Positions 3,132 through 63,448 of a stretch of DNA of 64,000 nt are shown in pieces. Under the pieces are notes generated by a model. It did not search any database, was not told the DNA's origin, and saw nothing but the letters and a program-made list of their open reading frames with translations. Source of the DNA: Escherichia phage BUCT632; sequence record PQ488502.1. One strand, given 5' to 3'. How positions within the stretch are numbered: the first letter of the stretch is position 1; every line of letters starts with the position of its first letter. The translations under genes and the position numbers were made by a program.

Positions 3132-5977
3132 AGAAAATACTAGATAGTGCTAGAAACTACTTAAAAAATAATAGCAGAATAAAAACTGCTAGTCTAATTT
3201 CCCTAGAATTACCTGGCTCTACTGGTACTAGTACTGCTTTTATTTATTTAACTGATTATTTTAGAGATGTACTATATAATGGTATTTTGTACCAGGCCGG
3301 TAAGGTTAAGTCCATTAGCACACATAAACAAAATAGAGATTTATCTATTGGCAGTCTATCTTTTACTATTACAGGTACAGCGCAGGATGAAGTACTTAAA
3401 TTAGTGCAGAATGGTGTGTCCTTTTTAGATAGAATAGTATCAATCCACCAAGCAATTATTACAGAGGATGGTTCTATTTTACCGGTAGACCCAGACACAA
3501 ATGGCCCTTTATTATATTTTAGAGGGAGAATTACCGGTGGGGGTATTAAGGACAACATTAGTACTTCTGGGGTTGGAACCTCCACAATTACTTGGAATTG
3601 TTCTAACCAATTCTATGATTTTGATAGGGTTAATGGTAGATTTACTGACGATGCTTCTCATAGAGGGCTTGAGGTTGTAGCAGGGCAATTAGTTCCATCT
3701 AACGGGGCTAAAAGACTTGAGTACCAAGAAGATTATGGGTTCTTTCACGCCAATAAAAGTATCTCTATTCTAGCAAAATATCAGGTACAGGAAGAAAGAT
3801 ACAAGCTAAAGTCTAAGAAAAAACTATTTGGTTTATCTAGAAGCTATAGTCTTAAAAAGTATTATGAGACTGTTACTAAAGAAGTAGATATAGATTTTAA
3901 CCTTGCTGCTAAGTATATACCAGTAGTTTATGGTGTACAGAAAATACCGGGAATACCTATTTTTGCGGATACAGAATTACACAATCCTAATATAGTTTAT
4001 GTAGTATATGCTTTTGCTGAAGGAGAGATAGACGGTTTTCTTGACTTTTCCTTCGGGGATAACCCTATGATTTGTATGGACTCTAATGATAGCTCTGCTA
4101 GAACCTGTTTCGGTGTTAAAAAAGTAGCCGGAGACACCATGCAAAGAATAGCATCAGGAGTATCTTCTAGTAGTCCTTCTGTGCATGGTCAGGAATATAA
4201 GTATAATGATGGTAATGGTGATATAAGGATTTGGACTTATCATGGAAAAGCAGATCAAACGGCTTCTGAAGTATTAGTAAATATAGCGAAGGAACGTGGA
4301 TTCTATCTTCAAAATATGAACGGTAATGGGCCTGAGTACTGGGATGCTAGATATAAACTATTAGATACTGCATACGCGGTAGTACGCTTTACTATTAATG
4401 AAAATAGAACTGAGATCCCCGAAGTTAGTGCTGAGATTCAGGGTAAGAAGATAAAAATCTATCATTCTGATGGTAGAGTAACTGCTAATAGCACTAGTTT
4501 AAATGGTATCTGGCAAACACTTGATTACTTAACTTCAGATAGATACGGAGCTAACATTACTATTGATCAGTTCCCTCTTCAACAATTGATACAGGAAGCT
4601 GCTATCCTAGATATTATAGATGAATCTTACCAAGTATCCTGGCAGCCATACTGGAGATACGTTGGGTGGACTGATCCATTAGCAGAAAATAGACAAATAG
4701 TACAAATGAATACTATTCTAGATACATCTGAATCAGTATTTAAAAACGTGCAAGGTTTGTTAGAGTCCTACGGTGGGGCTATTAACAACTTATCTGGTCA
4801 ATATAGGATTACTGTAGAAAAATATTCTAATACTCCATTAGAGATTAATTTTCTAGATACTTATGGAGACTTGGAACTATCAGATACTACTGGTAGAAAC
4901 AAATTCAACTCAGTTCAAGCATCTATTGTAGACCCAGCTCTTAGCTGGAAGACTAACTCTATTACCTTTTACAACTCTAAATATAAAGAGCAAGATAAAA
5001 ATCTAGACAAAAAATTACAGTTATCTTTTGCAAATATAACTAACTACTATACTGCTAGAAGTTTTGCAGACAGAGAGCTTAAAAAATCTAGGTATTCTAG
5101 AACCCTCTCATTTTCTTTACCTTATCAATTCATTGGTATTGAGCCTAATGATGCTATTGCATTTACATACGACCGTTATGGATGGGATAAGAAATACTTT
5201 TTAGTAGATGAAGTAGAAAACTCTAGAGAAGGAAAGATAAATGTCACCCTACAGGAGTATGGAGAAGATGTATTTATCAACTCTGATCAAGTAGATAATA
5301 GTGGTAATGATATACCAGATATTAGTAACAATGTTCTTCCTCCTAGAGATTTTAAATATACTCCTACACCTGGTGGTTTAGTTGGTTCTATAGGAAAAAA
5401 TGGTGAGTTATCTTGGCTTCCAAGTTTAACTAATAACGTAGTTTATTACTCTATCGTGCATTCCGGTCATGCTGAGCCTTATATTGTGCAGCAACTAGAA
5501 ACAAATCCCAATGAACGCATGATCCAAGAGATAATTGGAGAGCCTGCAGGTTTAGCAATATTTGAAATAAGGGCTGTGGATATAAACGGTAGAAGAAGTT
5601 CTCCAGTAACATTATCTATAGAACTTAACTCTGCTAAAAACCTAAGCGTAGTATCTAATTTTAGAGTAACTAATACGGCCTCTGGGGATGTAACTGAGTT
5701 TGTCGGCCCAGATGTAAAACTAGCTTGGGATAGGATACCGGAAGAAGATATAATAGAAAGTATATTCTATACTCTGGAGATCTATGATTCTCAGAATAGA
5801 ATGCTAAGAAGTGTACGCATTGAAAATCAGTATACTTATGACTATTTATTAACGTATAATAAGGCAGATTTTGCTCTTCATAACAGTGGTGCTCTAGGGA
5901 TCAATAGAAAACTATATTTTCGTATTAGAGCAGAAGGAGATGATGGAGAACAGTCTGTGGAGTGGGCATCCATTTAA
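3128..5977 (+). CDS. Baseplate hub / tail tip protein (pb3-like), 949 aa
   Basis: 949-aa ORF matching the T5 pb3 size; position between Dit and the central fibre gene. Confidence 0.8.
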   Translation: MKKILDSARNYLKNNSRIKTASLISLELPGSTGTSTAFIYLTDYFRDVLYNGILYQAGKVKSISTHKQNRDLSIGSLSFTITGTAQDEVLKLVQNGVSFLDRIVSIHQAIITEDGSILPVDPDTNGPLLYFRGRITGGGIKDNISTSGVGTSTITWNCSNQFYDFDRVNGRFTDDASHRGLEVVAGQLVPSNGAKRLEYQEDYGFFHANKSISILAKYQVQEERYKLKSKKKLFGLSRSYSLKKYYETVTKEVDIDFNLAAKYIPVVYGVQKIPGIPIFADTELHNPNIVYVVYAFAEGEIDGFLDFSFGDNPMICMDSNDSSARTCFGVKKVAGDTMQRIASGVSSSSPSVHGQEYKYNDGNGDIRIWTYHGKADQTASEVLVNIAKERGFYLQNMNGNGPEYWDARYKLLDTAYAVVRFTINENRTEIPEVSAEIQGKKIKIYHSDGRVTANSTSLNGIWQTLDYLTSDRYGANITIDQFPLQQLIQEAAILDIIDESYQVSWQPYWRYVGWTDPLAENRQIVQMNTILDTSESVFKNVQGLLESYGGAINNLSGQYRITVEKYSNTPLEINFLDTYGDLELSDTTGRNKFNSVQASIVDPALSWKTNSITFYNSKYKEQDKNLDKKLQLSFANITNYYTARSFADRELKKSRYSRTLSFSLPYQFIGIEPNDAIAFTYDRYGWDKKYFLVDEVENSREGKINVTLQEYGEDVFINSDQVDNSGNDIPDISNNVLPPRDFKYTPTPGGLVGSIGKNGELSWLPSLTNNVVYYSIVHSGHAEPYIVQQLETNPNERMIQEIIGEPAGLAIFEIRAVDINGRRSSPVTLSIELNSAKNLSVVSNFRVTNTASGDVTEFVGPDVKLAWDRIPEEDIIESIFYTLEIYDSQNRMLRSVRIENQYTYDYLLTYNKADFALHNSGALGINRKLYFRIRAEGDDGEQSVEWASI

Positions 5978-52074: not shown

Positions 52075-52863
52075 AAATTAGGGAACAGCGAGCCGATTAC
52101 GCTGAGTGCAGAATCCCAACCGGAGCGCATTGAATAGAGTCGGTGGGTTAGTTGTAAAACTAGTACACAGGGGGCGGCAATCCCGGTTAGTGGCTAGAAC
52201 GTGTAAAATGAGGCGTCTGAAACCTCTCCCCTAAACTCTTCTCTAATTTATAAATAGTGGGGTGTGGAAATCACTTATGTAGTAACACTGCCGTCCTAGT
52301 ATAATTGGTATTATCAAGCCGTAACTGGTGGAAGATGTAGGTTCGAATCCTACGGTCGGTAAGAACTGGATAACTGATGCTTTTAACGTAAAAGCTTCCG
52401 AGGTTAGTTGCGCACTGCCTAAACCACGCGGTAGTTGGTTCCAGACTAACCAACCAGTCTGCTGAATAGTTTTATTACGATTTAACTATGTCCAGGCTAA
52501 AGAAGAACTTTAGAAGGTATTCTAGGATAGTGAAGTTCTTTCTCCATATCGGAGTAGTTTTTCAAGCTATCCACAAAGTGGGAAATGCTGACATGAGAGA
52601 TGTCACTAATGGTGCACAATAGCACAGGTAATTCGCGATAACTCCTGTTGAGTAGCAGCAAAAGGCGGGAAGTCATGACCCCAAGCCTAACCGAGTCCTC
52701 AATATACCGCAGGATATAACCACTAAGTCACCCTGACTTAAACTGGAAAATAATAGACGTTACCGTATTTTGTCTTGAAATACTTAATGAGTGAGACTTA
52801 TGACTCTCCCGGTATCGTCTGTATTTTTAAGAGTTTTTACGAGAGTTCTTAAAAATACTTAAA
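52075..52863 (+). ncRNA. ORF-free transcribed region with tRNA-like T-arm hairpin (candidate structured stable RNA or precursor leader)
   Basis: About 790 nt without an ORF of 60 aa or more, downstream of a strong promoter; canonical T-arm GTAGG-TTCGAAT-CCTAC at 52337-52353 without a foldable cloverleaf. Confidence 0.3.
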
Positions 52864-56573: not shown

Positions 56574-56651
56574 GGTTCTCAAGCTCATATGGTATGAGCA
56601 CCCGGCTCATAACCGGAAGGTACGTAGGTTCGAATCCTCGGGGAGCCACCA
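56574..56651 (+). tRNA. tRNA with CAT anticodon (Met or Ile2), weak T-stem
   Basis: Acceptor GGTTCTC/GGGAGCC, D-arm GCTC...GAGC, anticodon loop CTCATAA, TTCGAAT T-loop with only 3 T-stem pairs, CCA. Confidence 0.45.
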
Positions 56652-59109: not shown

Positions 59110-59185
59110 CGACCGTTGGCTGAATGGCTTAGGCGAAGGATTGCAAATCCTTTTTATGTGAGTTCAAATCTCATGCGGTCGTCCA
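59110..59185 (+). tRNA. tRNA-Cys (anticodon GCA)
   Basis: Acceptor CGACCGT/GCGGTCG, anticodon arm AAGGA-TTGCAAA-TCCTT, T-arm GTGAG-TTCAAAT-CTCAT, CCA. Confidence 0.65.
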
Positions 59186-59187
59186 AT

Positions 59188-59327
59188 TTGCTGAAAGAAT
59201 TGTTAAATCAATTCAGGCACGCGTAGGAACACTGTCTCCGTAATTGAAAGATGGGGCACGGTTTGGAGAGGTATGCCGCTACACGCTACGGTGCTAACTC
59301 CGTCTAGGTGAAAATCCTAGTCAGCAA
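59188..59327 (+). ncRNA. tRNA-like structured RNA candidate (about 140 nt)
   Basis: Perfect 7-bp terminal pairing TTGCTGA (59188-59194) with TCAGCAA (59321-59327) next to a T-arm-like hairpin CTAGG-TGAAAAT-CCTAG; no canonical cloverleaf. Confidence 0.3.
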
Positions 59328-59337
59328 TGTAAATTTA

Positions 59338-59420
59338 GGGTCGTTAGCCAAGCGGTTTGGCGGCGGATTGTTAATCCGTGTCGAAAGACAACGTAGGTTC
59401 GAATCCTACACGGCCCGCCA
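59338..59420 (+). tRNA. tRNA-Asn-like (anticodon GTT) with unusually long variable arm
   Basis: Acceptor GGGTCGT/ACGGCCC, 3-bp D-stem, anticodon arm GCGGA-TTGTTAA-TCCGT, 13-nt variable region, T-arm GTAGG-TTCGAAT-CCTAC, CCA. Confidence 0.55.
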
Positions 59421-59522
59421 AATTCTGTGTAGAGTTAAGTAAACCGGTAGCCAATCAGCTATCATTGCTGACATCGAATTCAGCCACAGATACCATTTTC
59501 ATTAATAACTGAGGAAACAAGC

Positions 59523-59708
59523 ATGTCCAAGAATGTAATTGCACAGTTAGAAGTTCATCGTGATAGCACTATCAACAATATTGAAGTTGAGAAGAAATAC
59601 ATCGAAGAACTTAAACATGATATACTAGTAAGTCTTAATCGTCTTAATGTACGAAAAGAGTTTCTTAAAGAACTTAATGCAGCTATTGAAAAACTCAAAG
59701 CTGAGTAA
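59523..59708 (+). CDS. Hypothetical small protein
   Basis: 61-aa coiled-coil-like ORF. Confidence 0.45.
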   Translation: MSKNVIAQLEVHRDSTINNIEVEKKYIEELKHDILVSLNRLNVRKEFLKELNAAIEKLKAE

Positions 59709-59717
59709 ATGAATTAT

Positions 59718-59794
59718 GCGACCGGGGCTGGCTTGGTAATGGTACTCCCCTGTCACGGGAGGGAATGTGGGTTCAAATCCCATCGGTCGCGCCA
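59718..59794 (+). tRNA. tRNA-Asp (anticodon GTC)
   Basis: Acceptor GCGACCG/CGGTCGC, anticodon arm CTCCC-CTGTCAC-GGGAG, T-arm GTGGG-TTCAAAT-CCCAT, CCA. Confidence 0.7.
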
Positions 59795-59820
59795 AACTAA
59801 ACTAGCACGAGAAAAATGCT

Positions 59821-60168
59821 ATGATTAATGCTAAAGAAGAATTGTTACTTGCCCTAAAGAATACTAATTCTGAAGTTAAGTGTATTAAGATAGAATTCGG
59901 TTATTATGGGGACAAAGAAGTTTGGGTATTACCCGTAGGTTATACAGAAAAAGATATTGAAGATTTTCTAAATAATCTAGACTTTAAATATGATTCTGGT
60001 TTCGGTGGACAATTGCTTTATGGTAACGTATGGTTTACTGATGGAACTTGGTTAGAACGTGGTGAATATGATGGTTCTGAATGGTGGGAGTATAAGACTA
60101 CACCAGCAATCCCTGAGGAATGCCGAACAATTAATGGTGAGGTAGATAATACTTTACGGTTAAACTAA
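59821..60168 (+). CDS. Hypothetical protein
   Basis: 115-aa ORF. Confidence 0.5.
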   Translation: MINAKEELLLALKNTNSEVKCIKIEFGYYGDKEVWVLPVGYTEKDIEDFLNNLDFKYDSGFGGQLLYGNVWFTDGTWLERGEYDGSEWWEYKTTPAIPEECRTINGEVDNTLRLN

Positions 60169-60289
60169 TAAAATTTCAGTGCAGAACACGGAGCTAGCAA
60201 TTCGGAAGTGCTGACTCATGATAAGCTGCCTATGTACTTGCGAAGCGGTCGTGTCCAAGACTCGGACTCTTGCACTGAAAACAATCAAA

Positions 60290-60411
60290 CATTCTAGCGT
60301 GGTTGATGGGGAAACCAGCTTGGCGAGGGCAGAAGCTCGTTCGATTCGAGTGAAAGAATGGTTCTCGTAAGTCCGCACAAGTGATAACAGGTTCGAGTCC
60401 TGTCTAGAATG
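60290..60411 (+). ncRNA. tRNA-like structured RNA candidate (about 120 nt)
   Basis: Perfect 7-bp pairing ATTCTAG (60290-60296) with CTAGAAT (60404-60410); canonical T-arm ACAGG-TTCGAGT-CCTGT at 60387-60403 and a second T-arm-like hairpin GCTCG-TTCGATT-CGAGT at 60334-60350; no foldable anticodon arm. Confidence 0.3.
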
Positions 60412-60560
60412 ACACTATAAAGTTTACTTATTATGTAGGTTCCGGTAGATCGGCGGGTCTATTCTGGCATTTAAGAGGGGTCTCGCAAACTTCTTTGTCA
60501 GCCGTGGGGTTGGTAGCCTCCAGGCGGCCTACACAATAAGTAAATTTATTAAAAATTCAT

Positions 60561-60589
60561 TTGCTATTCTGCTTAATTCTCTGTATAAT
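60561..60589 (+). promoter_or_regulatory. Promoter (TTGCTA-N17-TATAAT)
   Basis: -35 at 60561-60566, -10 at 60584-60589. Confidence 0.65.
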
Positions 60590-60621
60590 ATATTTTATAA
60601 AGTGAAGAGAAGGAAAGCAAA

Positions 60622-60780
60622 ATGAAACACAAGATAGCTCAAGTTTTTATGGCATTATGGTGTATGCCAATAGCTGTAACAGCTTTTAATCTAGATACTT
60701 TTACTATAGAAGAAAAATGTATCGGATTAGTTAGCGGCTTTAGTATGCTTGGCTTATCTTTGTTGTGGTTGAAGAAATAA
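60622..60780 (+). CDS. Hypothetical small hydrophobic protein (52 aa), below the ORF-track cutoff
   Basis: ATG after RBS GAAGGAAAG; two hydrophobic segments. Confidence 0.45.
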   Translation: MKHKIAQVFMALWCMPIAVTAFNLDTFTIEEKCIGLVSGFSMLGLSLLWLKK

Positions 60781-60784
60781 TATT

Positions 60785-60862
60785 CTCCGTGTAGCTCAGT
60801 TTGGCCAGAGCGTTTCGTTTGGGGCGATAGGGTCGGGGGTTCAAATCCTCCCACGGAGACCA
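60785..60862 (+). tRNA. tRNA-Pro (anticodon TGG)
   Basis: Acceptor CTCCGTG/CACGGAG, D-stem GCTC/GAGC, anticodon loop TTTGGGG, T-arm GGGGG-TTCAAAT-CCTCC, CCA. Confidence 0.65.
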
Positions 60863-60868
60863 AACAAT

Positions 60869-60946
60869 TGCGGGTTAGATCTCTGGTAGAGATCGCTAGT
60901 CTCATAAGCTAGAAAGAGGTAGGTTCGATTCCTGCACCCGCTTCCA
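60869..60946 (+). tRNA. tRNA with CAT anticodon (Met or Ile2), U1-U72 mismatch
   Basis: Acceptor TGCGGGT/ACCCGCT, D-stem GATC/GATC, anticodon arm CTAGT-CTCATAA-GCTAG, T-arm GTAGG-TTCGATT-CCTGC, CCA. Confidence 0.6.
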
Positions 60947-60966
60947 TTTTAATAGGGGATTTCGAA

Positions 60967-61134
60967 ATGAAAGTATTTCGATTAGTAGTAAGTGACAAAC
61001 GTTTAGGTAAGAATACCTCAAAATCATTACTTGCTCATTATGGTAAAAATTGGGATGAAGTAATGGTAGAGTTTAATACTAATCACCCTTACTTGAAAGT
61101 TCACTCTATTAAAGAAGTATACAATGGTTACTAA
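60967..61134 (+). CDS. Hypothetical small protein (55 aa), below the ORF-track cutoff
   Basis: ATG 60967; stop just before tRNA-Lys. Confidence 0.4.
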   Translation: MKVFRLVVSDKRLGKNTSKSLLAHYGKNWDEVMVEFNTNHPYLKVHSIKEVYNGY

Positions 61135-61135
61135 T

Positions 61136-61214
61136 AGATCGCTAGCTCAATAGGTTTAGTAGCATCCGACTTTTAATCGGAAGGTTCTGGGTTCGAGTCC
61201 CAGGCGATCTACCA
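61136..61214 (+). tRNA. tRNA-Lys (anticodon TTT)
   Basis: Acceptor AGATCGC/GCGATCT, anticodon arm TCCGA-CTTTTAA-TCGGA, T-arm CTGGG-TTCGAGT-CCCAG, CCA; long D-loop. Confidence 0.65.
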
Positions 61215-61232
61215 ATTTCAAGAAAAACGCAG

Positions 61233-61261
61233 TTGCTTGATGCTTAATTTCTTGTTATAAT
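61233..61261 (+). promoter_or_regulatory. Promoter (TTGCTT-N17-TATAAT) followed by a perfect hairpin
   Basis: -35 at 61233-61238, -10 at 61256-61261; GATGAGGA-GAAA-TCCTCATC at 61275-61298. Confidence 0.6.
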
Positions 61262-61499
61262 ATTTATATAAATTGATGAGGAGAAATCCTCATCATAGTT
61301 CACTAAGGTATTAGCTCGACCTAGGACTGGCTGCCAAAAAGCACGATCCCCATGATTCGGGAGAAGTTCTAGATTGGTCCACTAGATTCAGCGGCAACTG
61401 AATAGTGTATTGGGTTTGCGAGATGACGCAGTTCCTTCCGCTCGAAGCGAAGGTGCTGTAGTTACGCCGAGCTAATAGCCTTAGTAAACTAAAGAATTT

Positions 61500-61578
61500 G
61501 GGGAATGGGTCTGCATGGAGTGGACACCTCGCTTGCACCGAGGACATCAGAACGGTTCGATTCCGTTATTCTCCACCA
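61500..61578 (+). tRNA. tRNA-Ala (anticodon TGC) with G3-U70 pair
   Basis: Acceptor GGGGAAT/ATTCTCC with G3-U70 wobble, D-stem GTCT/GGAC, anticodon arm CCTCG-CTTGCAC-CGAGG, T-arm AACGG-TTCGATT-CCGTT, CCA. Confidence 0.65.
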
Positions 61579-61583
61579 AATAC

Positions 61584-61660
61584 GCGTGATTGATGGAATT
61601 GGCATACATACCGTCCTTAGAAGTCGGGTTTTGAGGGTTCGAATCCCTTGTCACGCACCA
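61584..61660 (+). tRNA. tRNA-Leu (anticodon TAG) with short variable loop
   Basis: Acceptor GCGTGAT/GTCACGC, Leu-type D-loop GAATTGGCATA, anticodon loop CTTAGAA, 5-nt variable loop, T-arm GAGGG-TTCGAAT-CCCTT, A73, CCA. Confidence 0.55.
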
Positions 61661-61772
61661 AATTTGATGGTCAGAGTAAATTAAACCTACTATCTCGGTT
61701 GAGCTGTTTTAATGGGTTCGAATCCCAGCGAGGCGTAACTGCCTGGTGTGATAGAGGCATCATCTTATTATT

Positions 61773-61863
61773 GGAAGAGCAAATCGAATTGGCGACGAAA
61801 ACCGCTTGGAAAGTGGCTGACTGGTAAAACGGCTTGAGAGTTCAAATCTCTCCTCTTCCGCCA
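61773..61863 (+). tRNA. tRNA-Ser (anticodon GGA), type II
   Basis: 91 nt; acceptor GGAAGAG/CTCTTCC, anticodon loop TTGGAAA, long variable arm, T-arm GAGAG-TTCAAAT-CTCTC, CCA. Confidence 0.6.
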
Positions 61864-61882
61864 AACACTTGAGGTAATAATA

Positions 61883-62230
61883 ATGCTAGCAAAAGATAAA
61901 GCTCTAGAGTTTTTAGCATCTTTAGATGAAGATAAGATTATAGATGCTGCTGAAAAAGCTGGAATGCCAGATTTAACATATCTGGAACGTGCTATTATTG
62001 CTCGTGATAAACTACAGAAAGAGTTTGCTATTGCTCAGGAGGAGTTTTATACTCGCTATAACGCTCTTACTAAGCAAATTGAAAATGAGTGTTCTCATAC
62101 TTGGGGAGTAACAGAAAACCTAGGTAATGATCACGATGGCTGGTCTAAAGTAAAAATTACCTACTACCATCGTAGGACTTGTAAAATTTGTGGAAAAGTA
62201 GAAAACTTCACTAGTACGAGTGACTATTAG
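61883..62230 (+). CDS. Hypothetical protein with C-terminal Cys/His pairs
   Basis: 115-aa ORF; CSHTW...CKICG. Confidence 0.5.
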   Translation: MLAKDKALEFLASLDEDKIIDAAEKAGMPDLTYLERAIIARDKLQKEFAIAQEEFYTRYNALTKQIENECSHTWGVTENLGNDHDGWSKVKITYYHRRTCKICGKVENFTSTSDY

Positions 62231-62243
62231 TATAATAAATACT

Positions 62244-62333
62244 AGAAGATAGGACGTAGTGGTATGTAACTGGTCTTGAAAACCAGCCCGCTGTAGTGAT
62301 ACGGTGATGGTTCGACTCCATTATCTTCTGCCA
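62244..62333 (+). tRNA. tRNA-Ser (anticodon TGA), type II
   Basis: 90 nt; acceptor AGAAGAT/ATCTTCT, anticodon arm CTGGT-CTTGAAA-ACCAG, long variable arm, T-arm GATGG-TTCGACT-CCATT, CCA. Confidence 0.7.
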
Positions 62334-62353
62334 ATTAACTATAAGGAAATCTT

Positions 62354-62527
62354 ATGAGCAAAACAGTTACTGTAACAATGAAGGATGGTAAAAAATTTAA
62401 AGCATGTCTTCATGAAACAGATAAGGGATGGATGGCTTATTTGCCACACCTAGATTCCACCGGGTACGGAATGACCCAACGTGAAGCTATTGTTGATGCT
62501 TTAAATGAGGCTTCTGCTGGTTTATAA
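62354..62527 (+). CDS. Hypothetical small protein (57 aa), below the ORF-track cutoff
   Basis: ATG after RBS AAGGAAA. Confidence 0.4.
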   Translation: MSKTVTVTMKDGKKFKACLHETDKGWMAYLPHLDSTGYGMTQREAIVDALNEASAGL

Positions 62528-62534
62528 AAATTCT

Positions 62535-62667
62535 TGAAGTATGCCGGAATTGGTAGACGGGGCTGCCTAAAAGGTTTATAGAGAACATCCACTCTCTACA
62601 ACATACCTCATAAAGCGGCTGAGATAAATGGTCTATCTCGTGAAGGTTCAAGTCCTTCTGCTTCTTG
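62535..62667 (+). ncRNA. tRNA-like structured RNA candidate (about 133 nt) with Leu-type D-arm
   Basis: 5' half TGAAGTA-TG-CCG-GAATTGGTAGA-CGG resembles a tRNA-Leu acceptor/D-arm; 3' half has T-arm GAAGG-TTCAAGT-CCTTC and acceptor strand TGCTTCT (6 of 7 pairs); about 60 extra nt between; no CCA. Confidence 0.3.
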
Positions 62668-62895
62668 ATACATCTATGGCTCAAAGTGTAACGGTGCTAT
62701 TTGATGCTCTTAGTAAGACTTCCCCGACATGCGTTCGGGAGTAAGCTGCTAAGGCTAGAGTAGAAGAGTTTCTGAGAGCCGCCACAATTGAAAATTCGTA
62801 CTCGTCTTGAGCTGCGTGCAATAGGAGATAACTTGATTAGTATTCTAGAACATGCTAATTGAGGAAGGTTTCGCTAACCCTGCGAGTTTTCAATT

Positions 62896-63364: not shown

Positions 63365-63372
63365 AATAATAA

Positions 63373-63448
63373 GCGGTTAAGCACACGGGTTGTGTCGCAG
63401 GCCTTCCAAGCCTCGCTGAGTAGGGTTCGATTCCCTCTAGCCGCTCCA
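63373..63448 (+). tRNA. tRNA-Gly (anticodon TCC)
   Basis: Acceptor GCGGTTA/TAGCCGC, anticodon loop CTTCCAA, T-loop TTCGATT, CCA. Confidence 0.65.

Follow-up and report, generated by a model that had tools for sequence, protein, structure and literature searches.

The transfer RNA (tRNA) gene cluster of Escherichia phage BUCT632, a T5-like coliphage, holds three loci that are probably genes for non-decoding, tRNA-shaped small RNAs, lying within polycistronic tRNA transcripts and using the tRNA body as a scaffold for a functional insert. They lie on the + strand of the window, by which we mean the whole analysed stretch of 64,000 nucleotides (nt) from sequence record PQ488502.1; among Escherichia phages, Stokescottia (Demerecviridae, Tequintavirus) came closest to a 4-kb query around the loci, being 99.8% identical. 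On comparison with annotated genomes, loci 2 and 3 are orthologues of the T5 RNAs rna2 and rna1, and are thus rediscoveries, which leaves only locus 1 as new.

59188-59327, + strand: locus 1, a 140-nt cloverleaf-shaped RNA, supported by orthologues found with covariance model R1 and by covariation
60290-60414, + strand: locus 2 (RNA2), orthologue of T5 rna2 (T5s06), with 96.3% identity over 136 nt by BLAST on NC_005859 rna2
62535-62667, + strand: locus 3 (RNA1), orthologue of T5 rna1 (T5s03), supported by 87% identity to T5, synteny and covariation

The initial annotation of the window had drawn attention, at each locus, to a hairpin adjoining a 7-nt strand that pairs with a partner upstream. 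All three were found at those positions, with perfect pairing at loci 1 and 2 and 6 of 7 pairs at locus 3. By itself, however, this criterion is only marginally above chance. A descriptor scan of the + strand and of 30 dinucleotide shuffles looked for a 5-bp hairpin with a 7-nt loop of the form U....A.. and an adjoining 7-mer, the partner 7-mer of which had to start 100-160 nt before the 3' end of the downstream 7-mer. Watson-Crick pairing at 7/7 was observed twice (shuffle mean 0.33, maximum 2), 7/7 pairing with G-U allowed five times (shuffle mean 2.9, maximum 8) and pairing of at least 6/7 40 times (shuffle mean 21.7, maximum 34). Since pairing of at least 6/7 is common in the shuffles, the 6/7 of locus 3 is uninformative alone. 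Single-sequence folding gave modest z-scores of -2.3, -1.3 and -2.1. With a weak descriptor and modest z-scores, significance must therefore come from other evidence, which is comparative and, for two of the loci, also consists of annotation.

Conservation of the RNA structures

A query of 4 kb around the three loci matched 618 phage records. Orthologues were collected from 60 fetched loci, covariance models were made for locus 1 (R1), RNA2 (R2) and RNA1 (R3), and the pairs were counted and compared with 500 shuffles. Covariation was one of the checks that the initial annotation had proposed, and its outcome favoured the loci: in related phages, the terminal and internal helices of all three are kept by compensatory changes.

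RNA1: 26 distinct sequences; 12 pairs changed on both sides; 93.7% of cells paired, a figure that includes two wrongly set D-stem pairs (off by one; the right pairs are columns 10-12 with 24-26); covariation score 0.284 versus 0.115 shuffled (0 of 500 shuffles); slid controls 0.04-0.08
RNA2: 21 distinct sequences; 95.1% of cells paired; 18 of 34 pairs changed on both sides, with the internal hairpin under-counted after MAFFT misaligned it by a 1-nt register shift; covariation score 0.253 versus 0.126 shuffled (0 of 500 on all five measures); slid controls 0.03-0.06
Locus 1: 12 distinct sequences; 97.5% of cells paired; 12 of 30 pairs changed on both sides; covariation score 0.389 versus 0.159 shuffled (0 of 500 shuffles); slid controls 0.00-0.07

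Across the three RNAs, 94-98% of cells are paired, compared with 26-54% in the slid controls. Alignments A5 and A8 were fitted to covariance models, and the 5' part of the Mydovirus copies of locus 1, which MAFFT had misaligned, was realigned in this way. Because of the covariation, and of the existing annotation for loci 2 and 3, we regard the loci as real, and all three are conserved structured RNAs. The tRNA elbow, the acceptor/T-arm stack and specific insert sequences are likewise under selection.

The term family, used for the three loci in the initial annotation, is apt for their common architecture but not for their sequences: R1, R2 and R3 do not cross-match, and the three are a class by architecture. 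The statement that none folds as a canonical cloverleaf is wrong for loci 2 and 3, which do form cloverleaves with an enlarged anticodon arm. Rfam was searched with the whole cluster and with each locus, at the gathering threshold and at E values up to 10, and its models included the group I intron and transfer-messenger RNA (tmRNA) models that had been suggested; only sub-threshold tRNA matches were returned beyond the real tRNAs. None of the three loci was called as a gene by ARAGORN, which did not find a tmRNA either. A CCA end is encoded in 23 of the 24 tRNA calls of the window, and at none of the three loci.

No homologues of RNA1 or locus 1 were found in 5,426 E. coli genomes. To reach distant T5-like phages, 35 IMG/VR loci were added by way of a neighbouring open reading frame (ORF) of 115 amino acids (aa). 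The three RNAs have no orthologues in the 13 divergent metagenomic loci (L026-L038).

RNA1, a tRNA-Leu body with an enlarged anticodon loop

The T5 RefSeq record, NC_005859, has eight misc_RNA genes in the cluster. Two of them, rna1 and rna2, are described there, in BF23 (NC_042564) and in Salmonella phage 5 (AJ604531) as "tRNA-like stable RNA with unknown functions". Loci 3 and 2 share their cluster position with T5 RNA1 and RNA2, at 87% and 96% identity, and there is no essential difference between the counterparts. The initial annotation had likened the loci to small stable RNAs or to tRNA genes carrying insertions, an essentially correct reading; the orthologues of loci 2 and 3 are annotated in this way in the three phages. 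RNA1 matches T5 L003:3509-3648, within the rna1 feature (3502-3645). A homologue of T5.063 precedes it and RNAI, RNAIII and tRNA-His follow, in the same order in phage 5 and BF23; annotated in the T5 style, it would span 62534-62678, to the start of RNAI.

62535-62541 with 62659-62665, + strand: acceptor stem, UGAAGUA with UGCUUCU; 6/7 pairs, one of them G-U, and U.U at the end (1:72)
62567-62614, + strand: 48-nt insert in place of the 7-nt anticodon loop, folding as a bulged hairpin; the Rfam alignment has a 45-nt insertion inside the anticodon loop
62585-62592, + strand: apical loop; 25 of the 26 distinct orthologues in alignment A2 share ACAUCCAC, and T5 has ACAUCCGC
62621-62639, + strand: long variable arm with a 6-bp stem, a feature of class-II tRNAs; 100% of cells paired, double changes in 2 pairs
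62642-62658, + strand: T arm GAAGG-UUCAAGU-CCUUC, its stem invariant

By these features, RNA1 is a class-II tRNA-Leu cloverleaf with a 48-nt hairpin for an anticodon loop, in agreement with its earlier interpretation as a tRNA gene carrying an insertion. The acceptor stem (alignment columns 1-7 with 125-131) is followed by U8 and G9 and by a D arm, UGCCGGAAUUGGUAGACGG, with a 3-bp stem and the loop GAAUYGGUAGA, which is tRNA-Leu-like, as the initial annotation had noted for the 5' part of this locus. A G26.U44 pair and a 5-bp anticodon stem come next. Both halves of the elbow signature, GG in the D loop and UUCRA in the T loop, are present; UUCRA is invariant, and positions 59-60 vary as in real tRNAs. 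In the acceptor, the window is of the "GAAGUA" type and T5 of the "GGAAUA" type, which differ by two compensatory pair changes. The inner stems of the insert covary as well (column pair 46:63 is AU, GC or UA), and the apical stem occurs in at least six versions.

RNA1 thus has the acceptor stem, U8, 3-bp D stem, 5-bp anticodon stem, 6-bp variable arm and T arm of a class-II tRNA-Leu, and differs from it in the 48-nt structured insert, the lack of an encoded CCA, the U.U at 1:72 and an Rfam tRNA score that, at 25.0 bits across the whole model, falls short of the 29-bit threshold. After the RNA1 orthologues, the next-best matches of R3 are annotated tRNA-Leu genes (24-45 bits), which makes RNA1 a descendant of a tRNA-Leu gene. 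It was found in 492 phage records.

RNA2, a second cloverleaf with an insert

On the T5 record, rna2 maps to the window from 33083 (60290) to 32959 (60414). The initial annotation had ended this locus at 60411, whereas rna2 of T5 runs three bases further, through an ACA that stands in place of CCA.

60290-60297 with 60404-60411, + strand: 8-bp terminal stem, CAUUCUAG with CUAGAAUG
60318-60382, + strand: anticodon-arm equivalent, GCUUG (60318-60322) with CAAGU (60378-60382), enclosing a 55-nt insert; double changes in 4 of 5 pairs
60335-60351, + strand: second, internal T-arm-like hairpin GCUCG-UUCGAUU-CGAGU inside the insert; variants read by eye
60387-60403, + strand: T arm ACAGG-UUCGAGU-CCUGU; double changes in 2 of 5 pairs, UUCRA invariant
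L041:8001-8124, L061:6988-7112, L043:7987-8107, L047:5166-5286 and L022:6470-6591: RNA2 orthologues with encoded CCA or ACCA

RNA2, too, forms a cloverleaf, and 55 nt are inserted where the anticodon loop would be. Its D loop contains GG, completing the elbow with UUCRA, and 4 nt of variable region lie between the anticodon-like stem and the T arm. Compensation is seen, for example, in the acceptor, where CAUUCUAG/CUAGAAUG becomes UACGGGG/UCCCGUA in Klebsiella Sugarlandvirus phages, and in the internal hairpin, which becomes ACGG-UUCGAUU-CCGU in the INF11, UTK0010, My1 and Sugarlandvirus copies. The Rfam tRNA model (RF00005) gives 18.0 bits, in an alternative partial fold and below the 29-bit gathering threshold; R2, in turn, matches assorted tRNAs at 16-30 bits. 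RNA2 occurs in 479 phage records (417 at coverage of at least 80%) and extends to Pectobacterium phage My1, of another subfamily, Mccorquodalevirinae.

The 3' flank of RNA2 is ACACUA in the window and begins with ACA or ACU in the T5 type. The copies in Sugarlandvirus and in the Epseptimavirus phages INF11 and UTK0010 encode a discriminator and CCA immediately downstream of the acceptor stem, and a single T5-like contig has ACCA. Some lineages have thus retained the CCA end and others have lost it, and RNA2 may not have the same 3' end chemistry in every lineage.

Locus 1, a new conserved RNA

Locus 1 lies between tRNA-Cys (59110-59185) and tRNA-Asn (59338-59420). Its full-length orthologues score 128-177 bits with R1 and come from T5-like, Sugarlandvirus and Mydovirus phages.

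59188-59194, + strand: acceptor-like stem, 5' strand UUGCUGA, pairing perfectly with UCAGCAA at 59321-59327
59197-59214, + strand: D-like arm, a 6-bp stem with the 6-nt loop UUAAAU, without GG; double changes in 5 of 6 pairs, 100% of cells paired
59234-59257, + strand: internal hairpin GUCUC/GGGGC with a 14-nt loop; double changes in 2 of 5 pairs (U-A to A-U, G-C to U-A)
59259-59303, + strand: near-invariant core including AUGCCGCUACACGCUACGG; invariant columns in alignment A1
59304-59320, + strand: T-like arm CUAGG-UGAAAAU-CCUAG; one compensatory A-U to U-A change
59321-59327, + strand: acceptor-like stem, 3' strand UCAGCAA, followed by UGUAAAUUUA (UGUAAA), not CCA

The acceptor-like stem shows compensatory changes in 4 of its 7 pairs, with 100% of cells paired, and passes from UUGCUGA/UCAGCAA to UUACUGA/UCAGUAA to UUGUCUA/UAGACAA. 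There is also a small helix besides the internal hairpin. The core of ~45 nt (CGCGUAGG ... ACGGUU ... GGAGAGG ... AUGCCGCUACACGCUACGG ... CUAAC ... GUCU) is nearly invariant between Demerecviridae and Vequintavirinae copies that are ~75% identical overall, and AUGCCGCUACACGCUACGG is identical between the siphovirus and myovirus copies.

Locus 1 is cloverleaf-shaped without the sequence signature of a tRNA. Its D-like and T-like loops, UUAAAU and the invariant UGAAAAU, lack the GG and UUCRA of the elbow, the latter loop being off the UUCRANY consensus; Rfam, its tRNA model included, gave no match at E values up to 10, and R1 matches one tRNA only, at 12.7 bits. The label tRNA-like, applied to all three loci in the initial annotation, suits RNA1 and RNA2 in both shape and sequence, and locus 1 by shape only.

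The element was found in 219 records of T5-like and Sugarlandvirus phages, and also in Klebsiella myoviruses of the genus Mydovirus (Vequintavirinae), where it lies between two tRNA-Ser genes. In three contexts (Cys/Asn, Asn/Cys and Ser/Ser), it starts 2-3 nt past the CCA of the upstream tRNA, and so occupies a "tRNA slot". Among the matches listed, its annotation was either none or a spurious coding sequence (CDS). For example, the 152-nt Cys-Asn spacer of Salmonella phage 5 (AJ604531) holds locus 1 and was left blank by the annotators of rna1, rna2 and rna3. On the comparative evidence, locus 1 is a new conserved structured RNA, unannotated in every genome record examined, and annotators missed it because T5 and BF23 lack it. 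In both phages, the Cys-Asn slot holds a 172-aa ORF with a T5orf172/MUG113 domain (GIY-YIG-like), which overlaps the 5' end of tRNA-Asn (T5.069, L003:7007-7525; BF23 trn 2.8, L164:6749-7267). Mobile nuclease genes seem to displace the locus 1 RNA.

An exact scan of IMG/VR for the core motif gave 13 matches, apparently nearly all to sequenced isolates. Matches to a 17-mer of the core in the genome (43) and metagenome (56) collections were taken as noise, ~70 being expected by chance in genomes; those in the genome collection were mostly in actinobacterial, acidobacterial and other diverse contigs from isolates and metagenome-assembled genomes.

Comparison with known RNAs

T4 rnaC (species 1, ~139 nt, at the end of the tRNA cluster; L163:2409-2547, minus strand) is like RNA1 in layout: its terminal stem adjoins a consensus T arm (CCGGG-UUCGAAU-CCCGG), its central arm is enlarged, and a long hairpin resembles a variable arm; its folding z-score is -4.6. 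Unlike RNA1, its acceptor stem has two U.U mismatches. Homology between the two is not convincingly supported, with R3 giving 10.8 bits (E 0.038), within the range for ordinary tRNAs. In T4 rnaD (species 2), the T arm is absent altogether. The biological role of rnaC and rnaD has been described as unknown (PMC3014915, PMC9697503).

Other mimics, such as tmRNA and YrlA/Y-RNA-like RNAs, are also non-decoding and keep part of the tRNA fold. The three loci differ from tmRNA in having no tag ORF, and from Y RNAs in ending in an acceptor stem rather than a Ro-binding stem. Neither ARAGORN nor Rfam matched the loci to tmRNA or YrlA; the sole Rfam match to tmRNA was 17 nt inside tRNA-Ala, at 10.6 bits.

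The closest likeness in design is to the engineered tRNA scaffolds used for recombinant RNA in E. coli, in which a structured RNA replaces the anticodon loop and the tRNA body gives processing and nuclease resistance. Those scaffolds are artificial, whereas the phage arrangement is natural.

A proposed role for the tRNA body and its insert

If the three loci are genes for such scaffolded, non-decoding RNAs, the acceptor/T-arm stack would be the handle, together with the elbow (D-loop GG and T-loop UUCRA) in RNA1 and RNA2. Host RNase P would cut at the 5' end, the 3' end would be trimmed by exonucleases or RNase E, and the handle would guard the RNAs from decay, as in an engineered scaffold. 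Its invariance makes the inserted arm, or the core, the probable working part, which would carry sequence-specific determinants for a partner: ACAUCCAC in RNA1, the GGUUCGAUUCC-like internal hairpin in RNA2 and the ~45-nt core in locus 1. Selection on the insert is supported by the RNA1 loop, which is constant in all but one of the 26 orthologues while its own stem covaries. Our best guess, which is speculation, is that the partner is a tRNA-binding protein of the host or the phage; the RNA would then be a decoy or sponge for enzymes that act on tRNA. The titrated target could, again speculatively, be a tRNA-targeting defence nuclease.

The RNAs are taken as non-decoding because the flanks of the RNA1 insert vary (CUAAA...CAUAAA, CGAAU...UAAAA, CUAAA...GAAAAC) without a conserved U33, which is lost in the T5 type. 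In RNA1 and RNA2, inserts of 48 and 55 nt stand where a decoding tRNA has its 7-nt loop, U33 and readable anticodon.

Several observations weigh against a functional scaffold. Locus 1 is absent from T5, BF23 (by annotation), INF11 and My1, with no trace of it in T5 by R1; it is decayed in Salmonella phage KKP_3822, where the T arm has deletions, and in the L012 contig a promoter-like sequence and the start of an ORF have taken the place of its 5' half. It is therefore dispensable. The variation that underlies its covariation comes from three lineages only, in an alignment fitted to the model. For loci 2 and 3, the label "stable RNA" rests on the annotation of the depositors, and the encoded CCA of some RNA2 orthologues is as compatible with an RNA that can be aminoacylated as with a decoy. 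In addition, GUGGAUGU, the complement of the RNA1 loop, occurs in the window only at its own locus and at one chance site, which is not above chance. The loop motif itself is not repeated elsewhere in the window.

Alternative explanations

Locus 1 might stand apart from the other two. An invariant core surrounded by compensating peripheral helices is what would be expected if that core were catalytic or bound a ligand or a protein, and the element would travel as a tRNA-gene-like cassette. We consider it rather unlikely, but worth stating, that locus 1 is a distinct, undescribed class of phage structured RNA rather than a degenerate tRNA, possibly an RNA-based counter-defence or regulatory element.

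The structures could also be cis-acting punctuation only, directing RNase P or RNase E cuts that separate small-ORF mRNAs and tRNAs within the long early transcripts, as plant mitochondrial t-elements do, so that the excised RNA would be functionless. RNA1 starts 6-7 nt after an ORF stop codon (ORF 62354-62527), RNA2 lies 121 nt after an ORF (59821-60168), and the best-conserved common feature is the acceptor/T-arm stack, which is the RNase P determinant. Locus 1, however, is flanked by two genuine tRNAs that already supply cleavage sites, the invariant RNA1 loop and the near-invariant core of locus 1 would be superfluous for cutting, and the products are named stable RNAs by their depositors. 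We judge this explanation unlikely.

A somewhat less probable alternative is that the RNAs are aminoacylatable but non-decoding mimics, which would be trimmed, given CCA and charged, RNA1 by leucyl-tRNA synthetase (LeuRS), for a non-ribosomal role or for titration of synthetase or EF-Tu. LeuRS does not read the anticodon, and RNA1 retains the D arm, long variable arm and elbow nucleotides of a tRNA-Leu. E. coli can mature the CCA-less tRNAs of T4 by means of RNase BN and the CCA-adding enzyme, and the RNA2 of INF11, UTK0010 and Sugarlandvirus encodes its own discriminator and CCA. Against this, CCA is found in none of the three RNAs here, nor in any RNA1 orthologue (the 3' flank in the window is UUGAUA). 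LeuRS requires A73, whereas the RNA1 discriminator is U in the coliphage and Salmonella-phage copies and A only in the Klebsiella-phage copies, and the 1:72 pair is U.U.

Decaying tRNA pseudogenes, that is, insertion-disrupted relics with no selected function, would account for the degenerate, half-replaced and displaced copies of locus 1 (KKP_3822, L012, and T5 and BF23, where the T5orf172 ORF sits) and for the ACA at the CCA site of T5-type RNA2, and a true remnant does exist in the cluster (an orphan T arm at 61713-61727). This explanation is already largely refuted, and we consider it very unlikely: dozens of compensatory double substitutions keep every helix, those of the inserts included; the proportion of paired cells far exceeds that of the slid controls; the loop and core motifs are kept across genera and two phage families; and orthologue identities of 75-88% exclude the recent transfer of one sequence.

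There is scarcely any prospect that the loci are intron-containing genes spliced to functional tRNAs. Bacterial tRNA-Leu genes can carry group I introns in the anticodon loop, exactly where RNA1 and RNA2 have their insertions. The inserts, however, are far below group I size and match no Rfam intron family at E values up to 10, their flanks are not conserved as halves of an anticodon loop, and ARAGORN makes no call; since no anticodon loop can be restored, they are not functional intron-bearing tRNA genes.

Finally, conservation due to small protein-coding ORFs has a negligible chance of being correct. Loci 2 and 3 do overlap with ORFs of 50-72 aa, and some records have hypothetical CDSs over RNA2 and RNA1 (e.g. 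Stokescottia CDS0106), but no ORF of at least 30 aa spans locus 1. The orthologues vary in length by 1-7 nt (RNA2 from 121 to 128 nt), so that reading frames are broken, and substitutions come in pairs on the two sides of helices instead of following a codon period.

Other elements of the cluster

ARAGORN found 20 tRNA genes in the window. Rfam at the gathering threshold also found 20, of which 18 were common to both and two were extra, and the tRNA-Sec model gave two further sub-threshold matches. Three genes missed by ARAGORN have a CCA end and a counterpart in the T5 record.

56574-56648: tRNA-Ile2(CAU), 40.3 bits in Rfam
61773-61862: tRNA-Ser(GGA), GGAAGAG...CUCUUCCGCCA, just 19.7 bits (tRNA-Sec model)
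63372-63448: tRNA-Gly(UCC), 30.9 bits (tRNA-Sec model)

A further Rfam tRNA match at 52290-52361 (35.5 bits) has no CCA and lies inside the stretch equivalent to T5 "RNAX", a stable RNA of ~720 nt that precedes tRNA-Arg; possibly, this is one more tRNA-like element, contained in a longer RNA.

Equivalents of four other T5 RNAs were located.

59423-59495: RNA3 equivalent, with a UACCA end and a folding z-score of -3.0
60433-60535: RNAIV equivalent, with a long terminal stem around three hairpins
62679-62785: RNAI equivalent, with a terminal stem around one long irregular arm
62790-62895: RNAIII equivalent, folding like RNAIV

In the folding, RNAIV and RNAIII have a cloverleaf outline without the consensus loops of tRNA. 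The terminal-stem RNA class in this cluster thus extends beyond the three loci flagged at the outset.

At ~61700-61735, an orphan T arm, UGGGUUCGAAUCCCA (T arm near 61713-61727), is followed by GCGAGG and has no tRNA 5' half. It occupies the site of the HNH endonuclease gene hegC in T5 and, unlike the three loci, looks like a genuine tRNA remnant.

In many T5-like GenBank genomes, "hypothetical protein" CDSs have been automatically annotated over RNA2, RNA1 and tRNA-Cys, for example CDS0106 and CDS0103 of Stokescottia (L001:3041-3259 and L001:1997-2107). These CDSs are probably spurious. A few records labelled as Listeria, Campylobacter or Acinetobacter phage contain T5-like sequence that is nearly identical (one of them, "Listeria phage LM 4-11-1", of 1,517 bp, at 98.7%), and look like mislabelled or contaminant contigs.

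Significance

The tRNA-like stable RNAs of phages (RNAC and RNAD of T4; RNA1, 2, 3, I, III and IV of T5) have been known for decades and, to our knowledge, have no assigned function. Phage tRNA clusters have recently been tied to the evasion of tRNA-cleaving defence systems. The present finding is mostly already known, consisting of two rediscoveries and one new RNA, and it does not solve the function of the class. What RNA1 and RNA2 gain are structures supported by covariation, in which the anticodon loop is turned into a structured insert and CCA is dropped, and in which the selected nucleotides can be located. Locus 1 adds a member that is absent from the model phages T5 and BF23, yet present in ~219 genomes from two phage families. 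In addition, ORFs that are probably spurious cover these RNAs in many GenBank entries. The invariant motifs, namely the RNA1 loop and the locus 1 core GCCGCUACACGCUACGG, are concrete targets for mutagenesis and pull-down experiments.

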